From positions 1 through 5,360 of the forward strand of contig JAQYWN010000583.1 in assembly GCA_029379265.1 (NCBI GenBank): a stretch of 5,360 nucleotides of DNA, read 5' to 3'. Shown one piece after another: positions 1 to 5,360 of this stretch. Positions within the stretch are counted from its first letter, which is position 1. Every line of letters begins with the position of its first letter. The DNA comes from Rhizonema sp. NSF051 (lineage in GTDB: Bacteria; Cyanobacteriota; Cyanobacteriia; Cyanobacteriales; Nostocaceae). The position numbers and the translations under genes were made by a program. A model generated the notes under the pieces. The model ran no database searches. It was not told where the DNA came from and worked only from the letters and a program-made list of their open reading frames with translations.

Positions 1-35
1 AGGTACAACATTAATAATGTTGTACCTAATTTTTT
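1..35 (+). terminator. Rho-independent terminator-like hairpin at the left window edge
   Basis: A perfect 10-bp stem AGGTACAACA (1-10) / TGTTGTACCT (18-27) has a 7-nt loop TTAATAA. It is followed after AA by a T6 run (30-35). The stem is only 40% GC and may extend beyond the window. It would terminate a + strand gene lying upstream of the window. Confidence 0.45.
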
Positions 36-814: not shown

Positions 815-956
815 TTGAAAATATGTATTCCACGTTAGTCGGATTTCGTTGACCTGCTCCATCACTCATGAGCCGAGACTTAAGCTACAAGTTTTTTATT
901 TCCATTGCGGAATTGGCAACAGAAATTATGTGGTAATAATAAGATGCCGTGCTTAC

Positions 957-960
957 GAGG
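957..960 (+). promoter_or_regulatory. Shine-Dalgarno-like GAGG for the 967 ORF
   Basis: GAGG lies 6 nt upstream of ATG 967 (cgaGGtagtatATG by eye). Confidence 0.55.
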
Positions 961-966
961 TAGTAT

Positions 967-1359
967 ATGGAGCCATTGACTGCTGGTGCGATCGCAATTG
1001 GAACTGTAATTGCCACCAAAGCATTAGAAAAAACGGGCGAAAAGGTAGGGGAATCTCTATGGGATAAAACTGGTAAGTTTCTCGTTACCCTCAAAAAACA
1101 CTCTCCCCATACTGTAGTTGCTATTGAAAAAGCACCAGAACAACCACTCGATTATGGTAAAGCTGTATTGGAAGTAGAATTAGCAGCTAAAGCTCATCCT
1201 GAAGTCAATCAATCTATGCAGGAATTGATAGCAGCAGCACAAGCTGTGGAGAAATCTCAACATCCATATGCTCCCGCTTTTATTCAAAACATCCAAAAAG
1301 CTATTAATGCGGCTCAAAATCAAACCATTGACCAAAGAGGTAGTATTTTCAACATATGA
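967..1359 (+). CDS. Hypothetical 130-aa helical protein; candidate N-terminal effector/adaptor module of the downstream NLR (BELL/HeLo-like or EAD-like, unverified)
   Basis: It starts at an ATG with a GAGG SD and runs 130 codons to TGA 1357-1359. The N-terminus PLTAGAIAIGTVIATKAL is uncharged and rich in small residues. The remainder looks amphipathic-helical (KALEKTGEKVGESLWDKTGKFL, LDYGKAVLEVELAAKAHPEV, MQELIAAAQAVEK). The tail is N/Q-rich. It sits directly upstream of, and in frame with, the NB-ARC gene. Confidence 0.7.
   Translation: MEPLTAGAIAIGTVIATKALEKTGEKVGESLWDKTGKFLVTLKKHSPHTVVAIEKAPEQPLDYGKAVLEVELAAKAHPEVNQSMQELIAAAQAVEKSQHPYAPAFIQNIQKAINAAQNQTIDQRGSIFNI
988..995. repeat. HIP1 octamer GCGATCGC (inside the 967 ORF)
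   Basis: Exact GCGATCGC, the second copy in the window. Confidence 0.8.
1357..1359 (+). other. Single in-frame TGA (UGA-C context) between the two same-frame ORFs
   Basis: 967 and 1420 are 453 nt apart (151 codons). The only stop between them is TGA 1357-1359, followed by C. Codons 1360-1419 are open (LKPSEGECARYILEDLKKQP). Confidence 0.95.
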
Positions 1360-1419
1360 CTGAAGCCGTCCGAAGGGGAATGTGCGCGGTACATTCTTGA
1401 GGATTTAAAAAAGCAGCCA

Positions 1420-4400
1420 GTGGGTACTCCAAGCAACTTGCCTTTAACTAATGCCAAGTTTGTGGGGCGCGGCTCAGAATTGCAGTTGGTTCACGAAAAG
1501 TTGCAGCAATCTCGTACCGTTGCCATTTCGTCGGTTTCTGGCATGGGTGGCATTGGTAAAACGGAGCTGGCGTTACAGTATGCCTATGCACAGCTCTACC
1601 AAAATGTTTATCCAGGCGGAATTTGTTGGCTGGGTGTGCGTGAACAAGATATCGGTATTGGTCTTATAGATTTTGCTCGTTTACAGCTTGGTTTACCCGA
1701 ACCACCAGAAGACTTGAGCCACCTCCAGCAAGTGGAATGGTATTGTCGGCGATGGAAGGGACAGTCAATTCTGATTGTGATTGATGATGTCACGCATTAT
1801 GAAGTTATTCAACCCTATTTAAAAAAGTTTGATCCGCGCTTCAAAGTATTAATAACTACACGCTTGAAAATTGGGACATCCGATCAGCGATTAGATTTAA
1901 CTGTGCTTACAGAAGAGATATCTTTGGAACTGCTACAAGCCTTAGTAGGAGACCCTAAGCGCATTAATTCTCAGCTTGACGATGCCAAAGTATTGTGTGC
2001 ATGGTTGGGATATTTGCCGCTCGCACTAGAGCTAGTGGGTCGGTATCTAGAGAAAAAGCCTGATTTAAGTCTTGCAGAAGCATTGGAGCGCTTGAAAGCA
2101 AGAAAGCTAGAAGCTCAGGCTCTTATCAAAGTTAAAAGCGGCATGACAGCAACCTTAGGGGTGGCAGCTGCATTTGAGTTGAGTTGGCAAGAACTGGATG
2201 ACTTTGCTCAAGCTTTGGGTGAACTCCTCAGTATATTTGCTCCAGCGCCGATTCCTTGGGAATTAGTGGAACAGTGTACTGATATTTTAGAGGCGACCGA
2301 AAAATCACCAAACTGGGAACGAGAAAACATCGAGAATTATCGTGACGATGAACTCATTGGACACAATTTATTGCAGCACGTTGGAACCAAACACTATCAA
2401 CTGCATCAACTGATTCGGGAATTTTTTGTAACAAAGCGCGAACAACGGAAAGATACAGAAAGCTTAAAATATGCCTTTTGTTTTGGAATAACATCTGTCA
2501 GACTACTTATCCCAGAAGTAATTACATTGCCTATCAGCGAACAGTTAAAATCTTGGATTCCCCATCTGGAGGAAGCTGCTGCCCTCTTAAGCCCTTGGAT
2601 TACCAACTCAGAGATGACGATGACGTTCATCCTTTTACAAGGTAATGAACCCGCATTAATCATTGGTCAATTCTATGAATTCCAAGCCGTCTATGCAGAA
2701 GCAGAACGTTGGTATAAACAATGTCTTGAATTTCTGGAAAATTGCTTAAGTGATGATCCTCGGAGTACTGCATCTTTTCTAAAGGAATGGGCACGACGTA
2801 AGCAAGACAAAGAGTCTGTCGATTTTGTAATCTTTCAATTGAAAGAGCTTGAATCTGGTATTTCCACGATCCTCAATGAGTTAGCTCGACTCTACCAGTT
2901 ACAAGGACGGTATAGAGAAGCTGAACCTTTTTATCTAAAATCGCTTGAAGCTCAACAAAAAATATACGGTAACGATCATCCCAAGGTTGCACTGTCTCTC
3001 AATAATTTAGCAACACTTTATTTGGAGTATGGACGTGTCATGGATGCCGAATCCCTGCTCATCCAATCTCTCGACATTTATAAAAAACAACTTGGTGATG
3101 ACGATCCCGAAGTCACACAATGTCTCAACAATTTAGCGGGAATTTATATGATGGAGTGGCGTTGTCGCGAGGCAGAATCTATTTGGATGAAGTCTCTCAG
3201 GACTTACGAACAGCATTATGGCAGCGAGCATTCTAAAACAGCATTAGTACTCGCCAACTTGGCAAAACTTTATTTTCAGCAAAGACTTTATGGTAAGGCT
3301 GAACCCTTTTATTTAAGAGCATTTGAAATCTATCAACGGCAGTTTGGAGACAATCATCCTGATGTTGCCAAAGCCATGAGCAACTTAGCAAACCTGTATG
3401 CAGAACAAGGATGCTATAGCGATGCCGAACAACTGCAATTGAGATCACTTGAAATAACTCAGCAAATATTTCCAAATGGACATCTTGATGTCTCAAACGT
3501 TCTCATTAGAATGGGGGATCTTTACGTCAAGCAAGGACGCTATGCTGATGCTGATTCTGCCTACTTGAAGGCACTAGAAATTCATCAAAATTTGTTTGGA
3601 GAGGATAATGTCAATATCGCAATCATTAGTAATTTAGCGTGGGTATATATACGCCAAGGACACTTCAATACCGCTGAATCACTTTACCTAAAAATTATTG
3701 AACGGCAAAACCAGTTTGATCGTTTTAGTGCTTATGGCATTCCTATTGGTTTAGCGCAAGTTTACTCTCATCAAGGACGCTTGAATGAAGCAGAGTCGCT
3801 TTTGTTACAGTCATTAGAAATTCAGAAGCAACAGCTTGGCGACCATCATCCTGAACTAGCTACCAGTCTCAGCACTATAGCAGAAATCTACCGATTGCAA
3901 GGACGGCATTCGGAAGCAGAACCCCTTTTATGTCAGGCATTTGAGATTGATCGACAGTGTTATGGAGAGAATCATCCTCTGGTGGCAGATAGTCTCACAA
4001 GATTGGCTTTAATCCACCGGATGCAGGGACGCTATCAGGAAGCCGAGCCTCTCTTACAGCAAGCCCTCGATATTTATCAACAGCATTTTGGCTATGATCA
4101 TGCCAACGTTGCGGTCATTCTCAACAATTTGGCATTGGTTTACGATGCTCAAGGACACCCCGAAAAAGCCGAACATCTGTTAAAGCAAACCCTTGAGATT
4201 CGCCTGCGCCTGCTTGGAGCCGATCACCTTGAAGTTGCGACCTGCTTCAACGATCTTGGCATCATCTACCGCAACCAAGGACGCTATGCTGAGGCAGAAT
4301 CGCTGTTTCTGCAAGCTCGTGACATTTATCAACGGCAGCCTGATGGCGATCATCCTGACATGGCAGGGAATTTTTATCAGTTAGCAGAACTGTATTCTTT

Positions 4401-5049
4401 GCAAGATCGCTACGATGAGGCAAGACCGCTTTATCTCAAATCATTAGAAAGAGTGCAACATCAGTTTGGACTGACCCATCCTAATATTCTGGCTCATCTA
4501 ATGAAACTTGCAAAAATCTGCAACGTGCAAGCGCGTTATGCTGAGGCAGAATCGTTCGCTATCAAGGCTTTGATAATCGCTCGTCCGCTGTTCGGAGATA
4601 ATCATTCTGCGGTGGCGTTGTCCCTGAACCAATTGGGGCTTGCTTACCTCTCGCAAGGGCACTACCGAGAAGCCGAACCGTTGCTGCTGAAAAGTGTGGA
4701 TATTTTGCAAAGCCATTTTGGGCAGGATCATCCAATGCTAGTATCTGTTCTCAGCAATTTAGCAGAACTCTATTTCTCTCAGAAACGCTTTCCAGAGGCA
4801 GAACCGCTCGTGAGACAAGCCCTCGCTATTAACCAACAGCAATTTAGCAACGATCATCCCGAAGTTGCCTATCACATTCATCATCTGGCAATTTTGTCTA
4901 GCTCACAGGGACGCTATCAAGAGGCAGAATCCCTCTTTTCTAAAGCTTTGACTTTGTTTGAAGAACATCTCGGTGTTGCCCATCCTACAACAATGAATGT
5001 TCGTCAGAACTATGCCAAACTTTTACAGTGGATGAGTAATCATGAGTGA
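1420..5049 (+). CDS. STAND/NLR-like ATPase: NB-ARC domain plus 17 TPR (kinesin-light-chain-like, TPR_10/TPR_12-type) repeats
   Basis: The ORF is 1209 codons. NB-ARC motifs by eye: FVGRGSEL (aa 14-21), Walker A GMGGIGKT (nt 1540-1563), Walker B ILIVIDD (1768-1788), KVLITTR, GYLPLAL (2008-2028) and LHQ in the MHD position (2401-2409). A long TPR array follows. The start is uncertain: GTG 1420 is the first canonical start after the upstream stop and has no well-placed SD. Confidence 0.93.
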   Translation: MGTPSNLPLTNAKFVGRGSELQLVHEKLQQSRTVAISSVSGMGGIGKTELALQYAYAQLYQNVYPGGICWLGVREQDIGIGLIDFARLQLGLPEPPEDLSHLQQVEWYCRRWKGQSILIVIDDVTHYEVIQPYLKKFDPRFKVLITTRLKIGTSDQRLDLTVLTEEISLELLQALVGDPKRINSQLDDAKVLCAWLGYLPLALELVGRYLEKKPDLSLAEALERLKARKLEAQALIKVKSGMTATLGVAAAFELSWQELDDFAQALGELLSIFAPAPIPWELVEQCTDILEATEKSPNWERENIENYRDDELIGHNLLQHVGTKHYQLHQLIREFFVTKREQRKDTESLKYAFCFGITSVRLLIPEVITLPISEQLKSWIPHLEEAAALLSPWITNSEMTMTFILLQGNEPALIIGQFYEFQAVYAEAERWYKQCLEFLENCLSDDPRSTASFLKEWARRKQDKESVDFVIFQLKELESGISTILNELARLYQLQGRYREAEPFYLKSLEAQQKIYGNDHPKVALSLNNLATLYLEYGRVMDAESLLIQSLDIYKKQLGDDDPEVTQCLNNLAGIYMMEWRCREAESIWMKSLRTYEQHYGSEHSKTALVLANLAKLYFQQRLYGKAEPFYLRAFEIYQRQFGDNHPDVAKAMSNLANLYAEQGCYSDAEQLQLRSLEITQQIFPNGHLDVSNVLIRMGDLYVKQGRYADADSAYLKALEIHQNLFGEDNVNIAIISNLAWVYIRQGHFNTAESLYLKIIERQNQFDRFSAYGIPIGLAQVYSHQGRLNEAESLLLQSLEIQKQQLGDHHPELATSLSTIAEIYRLQGRHSEAEPLLCQAFEIDRQCYGENHPLVADSLTRLALIHRMQGRYQEAEPLLQQALDIYQQHFGYDHANVAVILNNLALVYDAQGHPEKAEHLLKQTLEIRLRLLGADHLEVATCFNDLGIIYRNQGRYAEAESLFLQARDIYQRQPDGDHPDMAGNFYQLAELYSLQDRYDEARPLYLKSLERVQHQFGLTHPNILAHLMKLAKICNVQARYAEAESFAIKALIIARPLFGDNHSAVALSLNQLGLAYLSQGHYREAEPLLLKSVDILQSHFGQDHPMLVSVLSNLAELYFSQKRFPEAEPLVRQALAINQQQFSNDHPEVAYHIHHLAILSSSQGRYQEAESLFSKALTLFEEHLGVAHPTTMNVRQNYAKLLQWMSNHE
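1459..2427 (+). other. NB-ARC (AP-ATPase) nucleotide-binding and winged-helix module within the NLR
   Basis: The motifs FVGR, GMGGIGKT, hhhhDD, LITTR, GxLPLAL and LHQLIREFF occur in the canonical NB-ARC order and spacing (established Pfam NB-ARC signature, recognised by eye). Confidence 0.85.
2872..5046 (+). repeat. Array of 17 coding TPR units (42 aa / 126 nt) plus a C-terminal partial cap
   Basis: The recurrent pattern is LNNLAxLYxxQGRYxEAEPLxxxxLEIxxxxxGxDHPxVAxx, with units starting at aa 485, 527, 569, 611, 653, 695, 736, 775, 817 ... 1153. At the DNA level, TATGCTGAGGCAGAATCG is exact at 4285-4302 and 4537-4554 (252 nt = 2 units apart). CAGGGACGCTATCA occurs at 4024 and 4906 (882 nt = 7 units apart). 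Confidence 0.9.
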
Positions 5050-5360
5050 ACCTTCAATATTCAATCCAGAGCGGACAGGAGTTTTCAGACTATCTTGCAG
5101 GAAATTACACGGATCTCGATCTTATGCCTATTGTAGATGTAGTAGACGTAGTTAACCTTAAAGCATTTTCGGGGAATACAAGGCTCAAACTATTAATCTC
5201 TCGTGGCTATGACTTGTCTGTCTCCCCCCACTTATATTTGTTTTCAGTGGGAGCAAGGACGCATAAAGACAAATTGCGTAAGCACCCCAACACCTTCCTC
5301 ACTTTCGGCATACTATTAAGTACAAGCTGGTGTCCTTTCAAAGCAATGGCTCTCAAGTGA
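5046..5360 (+). CDS. Hypothetical 104-aa ORF of unknown function; coding status uncertain
   Basis: A GTG start at 5046 overlaps the NLR stop (GTGA, 5046-5049), and TGA sits exactly at the window end. I recognise no motif or family. The purine-rich GGATGAG about 10 nt upstream is only a weak SD. The sequence has no clear domain-like character. Confidence 0.3.
   Translation: MNLQYSIQSGQEFSDYLAGNYTDLDLMPIVDVVDVVNLKAFSGNTRLKLLISRGYDLSVSPHLYLFSVGARTHKDKLRKHPNTFLTFGILLSTSWCPFKAMALK

Follow-up and report, generated by a model that had tools for sequence, protein, structure and literature searches.

The closest described relatives of the locus reported here are the Bell/BASS5-NLR pairs, in which a small Bell-domain protein and a separately encoded receptor of the NLR type carry a matching pair of motifs (10.1101/2020.01.06.895854). 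The locus lies in a stretch of 5,360 nucleotides of Rhizonema sp. NSF051 (contig JAQYWN010000583.1), hereafter called the window, where an open reading frame (ORF) for a Bell-domain effector (967-1359, plus strand) is followed by an ORF for an NB-ARC and TPR sensor of the NLR type (1420-5049, plus strand). The window resembles these pairs in its Bell domain (86-90% identity over residues 1-93) and in its collinear NB-ARC/TPR neighbour, and its C-terminal tail is of comparable size and make-up and can be aligned to variants of BASS5 (IEKIVNFSQRDIN). Unlike them, it has an NLR without a second motif, its two ORFs share one frame and are separated by a conserved TGA-C and a hairpin, and the NLRs of the family usually lack a start of their own. 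On balance, and with moderate confidence, we favour programmed read-through of this UGA, which would give a free Bell-tail effector together with a rare Bell-tail-linker-NLR fusion able to nucleate the tails.

Several better-known systems share parts of this arrangement. The Bab/Agp antiphage system of E. coli (10.1101/2024.11.07.622273) also has a small helical effector that begins with MEP... and ends in an amyloid motif, and there an adjacent sensor activates the effector, leading to membrane damage and abortive infection; the same scheme is proposed here. Bab/Agp differs in that two proteins share the motif (BASS11), the sensor is of the TPR-GreA/B-C-PIN type and not an NLR, and no read-through has been described. 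All-in-one effector-NLRs (Bell or MEPIS NLRs, e.g. Avast2 and bNACHT, and the fungal HeLo-NLRs) have the architecture of the proposed read-through product, i.e. effector, NOD and repeats, but in the window the fusion would arise in small amounts beside the free effector and would carry an amyloid-type tail between effector and NOD. The logic is also that of the fungal pairs HET-S/NWD2 and HELLP/PNT1, where oligomerisation of an NLR seeds an amyloid fold and this fold switches on a helical effector that targets membranes, although in those pairs each of two genes encodes a copy of the motif, whereas here it would be encoded once.

In the window the sole separator between the Bell and NLR ORFs is the TGA at 1357-1359 (plus strand), which is followed by C (UGA-C), is conserved in the family and is the proposed read-through site. 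Behind it 20 codons (LKPSEGECARYILEDLKKQP, 1360-1419, plus strand) are open in frame as far as GTG 1420, which is the first canonical start codon; in the family this linker is under purifying selection. Folding and family covariation place a post-stop RNA stem-loop at 1368-1404 (plus strand), whose canonical 5' arm, GUCCG (1368-1372), follows the TGA at a distance of 8 nt. The NLR ORF, delimited by ORF and domain scans, contains a P-loop (GMGGIGKT, 1540-1563), the NB-ARC domain (approximately 1480-2112) and approximately 17 TPR units up to its end, and the predicted read-through product of the window would be 1,360 aa long. The window sequence has neither a terminator between the two ORFs nor a Shine-Dalgarno sequence 5' of GTG 1420.

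The junction was compared with known stop recoding signals, namely the UGA read-through of the phage Qbeta A1 gene, the gag-pol stop of murine leukaemia virus with its structure after an 8-nt spacer, the UGA-C of prfB and the bacterial selenocysteine insertion sequence (SECIS). It shares with them a conserved specific stop, the weak UGA-C context, an RNA structure approximately 8 nt 3' of the stop and a startless in-frame extension. It differs in that it belongs to cellular bacterial immune genes, the hairpin has only 5 bp and selenocysteine machinery is not expected; read-through is here deduced from sequence.

The two ORFs may instead form an ordinary two-gene operon, with the NLR translated separately from GTG 1420 in the window and from internal or non-canonical starts elsewhere. 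The TGA and hairpin would then be, for example, an mRNA-stability or processing element that fixes the Bell:NLR ratio, and the tail would contact the NLR without a matching motif. Such an operon would be in keeping with the position of GTG 1420 ahead of the NB-ARC core and with the fact that Bell and NLR genes are normally separate and collinear; in bacterial operons, hairpins between cistrons are an established means of setting differential expression. We nevertheless consider it unlikely, in view of several features of the family that it leaves unexplained, described in the following paragraphs.

The loci surveyed comprised 80 genomic loci collected by homology and 80 metagenomic loci collected by the post-stop-hairpin pattern only, and the counts were taken over 86 distinct Bell-like ORFs. 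The stop was TGA in 68 of these, and 64 of the 68 were open in frame into the downstream gene; a perfect 5-bp stem at +9..13 / +22..26 was present in 60 of the 68 TGA genes. The other 18 ORFs ended in TAA or TAG; two were open in frame, and the stem was found in none of the 18, nor did any have at least 4 of the 5 pairs. Among the 64 open TGA junctions the base following the stop was C in 56, G in five, A in three and T in none. Ordinary ORFs of at least 300 codons from the same loci ended in TAA (63), TAG (35) or TGA (31/129, 24%), and TGA-C was the rarest TGA context in these (2/31). The metagenome scan demanded the hairpin sequence alone and required neither a Bell gene nor a stop codon, and all 49 genuine junction matches (46 distinct) bore TGA at the stop position; the remaining matches to the pattern were unrelated, largely high-GC sequence. 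An ordinary operon does not explain this exclusive use of TGA, mostly as TGA-C, when neighbouring genes use it so much less.

The same layout was found in Stigonema and on a chromosome of the PCC 7120 type. Another idea is that the loci are all-in-one Bell-NLR genes decaying after a nonsense mutation (pseudogenes), or that the stop is a sequencing error. All-in-one Bell-NLR architectures do exist and one junction has TGG in place of TGA, but at least 64 distinct junctions, from many genera and with many tail classes and partner types, have this stop codon at one and the same place, and the flanking ORFs are intact and under purifying selection. Conservation effectively refutes this explanation, whose probability we put close to nil.

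The first codon after the stop was CTA in 27 of the 64 junctions, CTG in 25, GTG in four and ATC in three, and CCA, CTC, CTT, GTA and CCG also occurred; it is not generally a start codon. Termination followed by reinitiation on this codon (CUG or GUG) would produce a sensor that starts with the linker peptide and is not fused to Bell. The CTG and GTG junctions would allow it, and reporters in Anabaena show measurable initiation at CUG (PMC10272220), but CTA and the rarer codons such as ATC, CCA, CTC, CTT, GTA and CCG are no canonical starts, which excludes reinitiation at this codon for the many CTA and CCA loci. Moreover, the sensor would be left without any copy of a signalling motif, and the TGG variant indicates that a continuous ORF is tolerated. 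Reinitiation thus appears quite improbable.

Starts further downstream were also lacking at many loci. In 7 of 15 closely related loci no ATG, GTG or TTG occurs before codon 33, and in one locus (L027) none occurs before the P-loop. Across the family the downstream ORF is usually without a start of its own, while in the window this holds only in part, because of GTG 1420. The operon explanation does not account for the loci that are startless before or inside the NB-ARC N-terminal motif. In public annotations the NLR start was placed at an ATG inside the P-loop (MGGIGKT; L002:6586), at a GTG that precedes the P-loop by five codons (L003:6571) or at a CTG (L001:6499), which suggests that this class of NLR genes is systematically mis-annotated.

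A sense codon in place of the stop was found in P0269, a partial Dolichospermum protein reading ...QRGSTFNF-W-QHSSDGERTKL...GMGGLGKT, in which TGG replaces TGA, the hairpin is kept and the ORF is continuous. Distant long fusions of the family (P0148, P0186, P0211, P0225 and P0247) lack the junction linker and are silent on the residue at the stop position. At another locus (L154) the codon at 3339-3341 is AAC, 10 nt 5' of a pattern match at 3349-3371; there the NLR has its own N-terminal BASS-like motif (MTDENWQGINLKGGNPTIKDNVI) and runs through the AAC into the same hairpin-encoding linker (FISSERERVKSNPP), so that the cassette exists also without a stop. A further variant, in a Brasilonema angustatum contig (L029:4421-4429, also sampled as L140), reads TGA CTG TAG, where another stop follows in frame two codons later, and may be an inactivated copy or a tighter double stop.

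The hairpin has the consensus UGA CUNNAGUC [G(U/C)C(C/U)G] AACGGGAA [CGG(A/G)(C/U)] AAAG, with the two arms of the stem in square brackets. In an alignment of 39 sequences 98.5% of the cells were paired, compared to 12-41% when the 3' arm was slid, and RNAalifold recovered the same helix. Double changes occurred in three of the five stem pairs; pair 19-37, for example, was UA in 22 sequences, CG in 15 and UG in two. In the independent metagenome set the same pair was TA in 25, CG in 20, TG in one and CA in none, whereas CA was found in 6 of 30 chance matches. The compensatory changes are non-synonymous, as Ser or Pro at codon 4 goes with Thr, Ala or Val at codon 9, and post-stop codons 1-10 showed no third-position excess and a ratio of non-synonymous to synonymous substitution rates (dN/dS) of 0.80, with dS depressed. 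Together these observations indicate that the constraint in the hairpin acts on the nucleic acid and not on the peptide.

A UGA with a close, conserved hairpin and a G-rich apical loop recalls the geometry of a bacterial SECIS, and the UGA might accordingly encode selenocysteine. In a published survey (PMC1794560) the trait for selenocysteine decoding (SelA/SelB) was not detected in Cyanobacteria, and the junction sits on a PCC 7120-type chromosome. The surveyed junctions include no variants with a Cys codon, the sense variants being Trp (TGG) and Asn (AAC), and a redox residue would make no functional sense in an inter-domain linker. Selenocysteine is hence a very improbable explanation.

Further downstream the constraint is of another kind. 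Post-stop codons 11-23 (LTPTKSIPYRGSV), which lie 5' of the NB-ARC FVGRExEL motif, gave a dN/dS of 0.26, compared to 0.22-0.29 for NB-ARC segments. These linker values come from 15 closely related loci with identical spacing; in the set with 153-nt spacing dN/dS is uninformative, as that set mixes non-homologous NLR classes. The linker thus shows the substitution pattern of coding sequence although it precedes any start codon, which a two-gene operon would leave unexplained.

The tail of the Bell protein (FIQNIQKAINAAQNQTIDQRGSIFNI, 1279-1356, plus strand) is rich in N, Q and I and was classed, by alignment, composition and comparison with Table S2 of Dyrka et al. 2020, as a BASS5-like uncatalogued variant. 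The first-pass annotation of the window, made from the letters alone, had counted nine N or Q among the last 26 residues; these are five Q and four N, besides six I, one K and neither P nor L, and G and V are not enriched. Tails of the TGA type contain 15% N, 13% Q, 16% I, 0.9% P and 2.2% L. The window tail aligns position by position with a class-D tail (IEKIVNFAQRDINVETQNINI), which is itself similar to the bass_05 entry IEKIVNFSQRDIN, although Table S2 lacks the strings 'AINAAQ' and 'IDQRG' of the window tail. The same annotation had considered, as one possibility, a BELL-type amyloid tail beside an NLR. The composition of the tail fits this, but the matching N-terminal copy on the window NLR is missing: a second tail copy, sought in all six frames of the window, gave a best non-self score of 31, within the range of shuffles (mean 29.8, maximum 42), and at loci of the window type the NLR N-terminus leaves no room for a motif. 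The two-gene BASS arrangement, with a separately encoded matching motif on the NLR, does not occur in the window, where a matching receptor-side motif would exist only through read-through. At two-gene BASS5 loci residues homologous to the linker (..QKQLTPTKSIPYRGSVNFVGRETEL) directly follow the NLR's own motif, so that at TGA-type loci the Bell tail takes the place of the receptor motif.

The motif-pair screen of Dyrka et al. 2020 (10.1101/2020.01.06.895854) required a motif on the annotated NLR N-terminus, and loci like the window are therefore undetectable by it; half of the Bell tail motifs in that study were without a partner. Neither stop codons nor read-through are mentioned in that paper or in the 2024 Bab/Agp preprint (10.1101/2024.11.07.622273), and a search of literature full text gave nothing relevant on read-through together with NLRs, amyloid signalling or cyanobacteria. 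The Bell identity is known, while the conserved recoding-type junction appears to be new for the Bell/BASS-NLR system.

The ORF at 967-1359 is a genuine gene. It is present exactly as first annotated, with an ATG start, 130 codons and a TGA stop on the plus strand, and its product matches a hypothetical protein from Rhizonema sp. NSF051 with 100% identity. More than 740 homologs were found in the database, and the top 120 (98-148 aa) are all from heterocystous cyanobacteria. In the family alignment a strongly conserved N-terminal module (approximately 95 aa) is followed by a spacer that varies and by a C-terminal tail (25-30 aa) that comes in discrete classes; the usual form has 146 aa, and the window protein lacks 16 residues of the variable segment. 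The most conserved segment is SPHTVVAIEKAPEQPLDYGKAV, with invariant S46, P47, K55, D62, Y63, K65 and A66. The N-terminus of the window protein (MEPLTAGAIAIGTVIAT) reads MEPLT..., with M1, E2 and L4 conserved in at least 90% of the family, and fits the 'MEPIS' signature of Bell, Hell and Bab proteins, which has an acidic residue at position 2.

Homologs that share 86-90% identity with residues 1-93 of the window protein (e.g. P0075) bear the tail ...NLQKLAEKIGQVVMPGGTGNI (also given as ...KLADKIGQVVMPGGTGNI), and the NB-ARC genes beside them, which have their own ATG and lie in any of the three frames, begin with the matching motif M..DSGKFAEKIGxxAAPGxQVNIGTQII. Exactly this pair of tail and NLR motif is listed as BASS5 (bass_05), on Bell proteins, in Table S2 of Dyrka et al. 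2020 (10.1101/2020.01.06.895854). Because its close homologs bear this pair and its N-terminus is of the MEPIS type, the window protein is assigned, at the family level and in the operational sense of the Bell literature, to the Bell-domain proteins. It also has the other features of a Bell protein, i.e. 130 aa (approximately 120-140 expected), a helical bundle, an MEP helix and a collinear NB-ARC neighbour; membrane targeting and execution of cell death would be its functions by analogy with the family.

AlphaFold2, run on a 29-sequence alignment, gave a model with a predicted local distance difference test score (pLDDT) of 72.9 and a predicted template-modelling score of 0.70. Five helices are predicted within residues 3-96 (3-23, 29-45, 47-55, 63-76 and 78-96), in agreement with the early description of an N-terminal hydrophobic helix followed by three or four others (approximately four in the model). 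Together with the alignment they define a putative Bell helical bundle (residues 1-96; 967-1254, plus strand). Its first helix (residues 1-23, MEPLTAGAIAIGTVIATKALEKT; 967-1035, plus strand) is presumed to insert into membranes, by virtue of the predicted helix 3-23 and the MEPIS motif (10.1101/2024.11.07.622273), and includes the small-residue hydrophobic stretch already noticed at residues 4-17 (LTAGAIAIGTVIAT).

The first-pass annotation had left open whether this protein was a BELL protein or an effector-associated domain (EAD). The BASS5-bearing homologs and the MEP signature speak for the former, whereas EAD identity is unsupported, as no Pfam EAD profile matched and the homologs are almost all free-standing small proteins. 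Its expectation of a recurrent linkage to STAND NTPases was borne out across the surveyed loci, and the segment SPHTVVAIEKAPEQPLDYGKAV, which it likened to N-terminal modules of other cyanobacterial multidomain signalling proteins, is indeed present N-terminally in a few long proteins (P0148, P0186 and P0247). It had overlooked the hairpin and the shared frame of the Bell and NLR ORFs, interrupted by a single TGA. The profile and structure searches that it suggested brought no significant match. In the Pfam scan of the 130-aa protein no HeLo, HELL, Helo-like, SesA, Rx_N, RPW8, MLKL 4HB or EAD profile matched; at E<=1 the only match was DUF2683 (E 0.013), far below its cut-off, and NCBIfam and PADLOC scans gave nothing above threshold (ZorA_3, E 0.008, far below its cut-off). 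Foldseek comparison of the model to the PDB gave no match with E<0.8 (best E 0.86; Rx-CC E 1.4, TM approximately 0.2), so that structural kinship to HeLo, MLKL, Rx or Bab is unsupported. Matches of the family profile to WD40 proteins (2ymu and others among PDB sequences, and also P0214, P0232 and P0250) were rejected as an artefact, because a single 20-residue stretch scores approximately 4 bits on every repeat and these scores add up. The region concerned, Bell helix 2 (residues 29-47, ESLWDKTGKFLVTLKKHSP; nt 1051-1107), is similar to the Nostoc WD40 repeat consensus KLWNRNGQLLQTLTGHSS, a likeness that is probably due to chance, yet odd as WD40 NLRs abound in the same genomes.

Under the favoured reading, most ribosomes starting at ATG 967 would terminate at UGA 1357 and release the 130-aa effector, while a minority would decode the UGA, most probably as Trp via a near-cognate tRNA. 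In bacteria termination at UGA-C is weak, a property put to use in prfB; UGA is read by near-cognate tRNA-Trp, and elements that stimulate recoding are typically found approximately 8 nt 3' of the recoded codon. The weak context and the stem-loop 8 nt downstream would favour decoding. Ribosomes that read through would enter the NB-ARC/TPR sensor in frame and produce a Bell-tail-linker-NLR fusion of approximately 1,360 aa. Upon a trigger, oligomerisation of the sensor would gather the tails of the fusion into a cross-beta nucleus, which would template the same tails on the free effector, present in abundance, so that the Bell helix would be released and damage the membrane, with abortive infection or regulated cell death as the outcome. 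A single DNA stretch would in this way supply both the receptor-side and the effector-side motif.

Several observations weigh against programmed read-through. The individual hairpins are small and no more stable than shuffled sequences (z +0.5 to -0.9; as the sequences are related, these statistics are not probabilities), so that the case for a structure is made by covariation only. The hairpin of the window is divergent, since in the canonical register one of its five pairs is broken (C-U) and two are G-U wobbles, and RNAfold prefers a larger hairpin at 1368-1404 with an inner stem 1376-1385 / 1389-1398 (-14.7 kcal/mol, z -1.9). The linker of the window is also 9 codons longer than usual, and the NLR may start independently at GTG 1420, ahead of the NB-ARC core (FVGRGSEL). 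Given this possible start and the divergent hairpin, the case for read-through in the window leans on the family pattern. Within the family, GTG is the first post-stop codon in approximately 6% of the junctions and would permit reinitiation there. The surveyed loci are akin and the cassette may spread by recombination, in which case the counts are not independent events, and the TGG variant rests on one 283-nt contig of a metagenome-assembled genome and could be an error. AlphaFold2 predicts the tail as a low-confidence helix (residues 103-117, pLDDT 45-60) and not as a strand, a prediction that is uninformative for templated folds. Finally, hairpin-stimulated near-cognate read-through has, to our knowledge, little precedent in cellular bacterial genes. 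The TrcR/tRNA-operon paper describes no UGA suppressor tRNA but shows that read-through can be measured and is modulated.

The combination of TGA, hairpin and linker is not confined to one type of partner. It precedes, always in frame, NB-ARC+TPR, NACHT+HEAT and another NACHT type, as well as transmembrane (TM)+FGE-sulfatase, CHAT-like+TPR and TM+PsbP-like proteins; an open in-frame junction with every partner type is again left unexplained by a two-gene operon. It appears, therefore, that sensors other than NLRs are coupled to the effector module as well. The cassette follows several divergent Bell subfamilies, all of which begin with MEP.... On these grounds a wider proposal can be made, for which we judge the case to be evenly balanced: in heterocystous cyanobacteria a portable recoding cassette (UGA-C, 8-nt spacer, 5-bp hairpin and short linker) would join death effectors to diverse sensors, with a single amyloid motif serving as template and substrate.

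The non-STAND partners were observed at L016:2175-3329 (TM and FGE-sulfatase), L048:4436-5098 (TM and PsbP-like) and L034:4397-5659 (CHAT-like and TPR). At a further locus (L138:683-1609) a 301-aa alpha/beta-hydrolase (DUF676-like, THSMGG), without an obvious N/Q-rich tail, ends in the same TGA, hairpin and linker and is in frame into a P-loop protein.

Other features of the window were also recorded. Upstream of the Bell ORF, a consensus scan (10 of 12 matches) indicated a promoter-like site at 913-940 (plus strand; TTGGCA, 16-nt spacer, AATAAT), which is weak evidence as shuffled sequence scores equally well, and a Shine-Dalgarno-like GAGG was read at 957-960 (plus strand), 6 nt 5' of ATG 967. 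A perfect 16-nt inverted repeat at 765-814 (GCGGGTTATTAAGGAC / GTCCTTAATAACCCGC, 18-nt loop, without a T-run) lies approximately 150 nt 5' of the Bell gene. An imperfect inverted repeat at 247-336, with 35-nt arms that are 83% complementary, could be a small repeat element or the terminator of an upstream unit; in the Rfam search of the window, which gave no family at the junction, the sole matches were weak, miRNA-like and to this repeat. A perfect 13-nt inverted repeat occupies positions 1-27 (AGGTACAACATTA / TAATGTTGTACCT, 1 nt apart). Behind the NLR gene, a 104-aa ORF (5046-5360) without a Pfam match has a GTG start that overlaps the NLR stop (GTGA) and may be the third gene of the unit.

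If the UGA-hairpin junction is a read-through site, it would explain the orphan Bell tails and would be a rare example, among the cellular genes of bacteria, of conserved stop-codon recoding with an RNA structure. Many annotations in which the NLR start is truncated or arbitrary would be corrected as well. Anabaena/Nostoc PCC 7120 has such a locus, and nonsense-reporter tools already exist for this strain. The design would be economical, as one gene would fix both the stoichiometry of nucleator to effector and the perfect identity of their motifs. With a portable cassette no co-evolution of two motifs would be needed and the tails would be free to diversify, and translational stress might increase read-through, so that immune priming would be linked to how the ribosome is faring.

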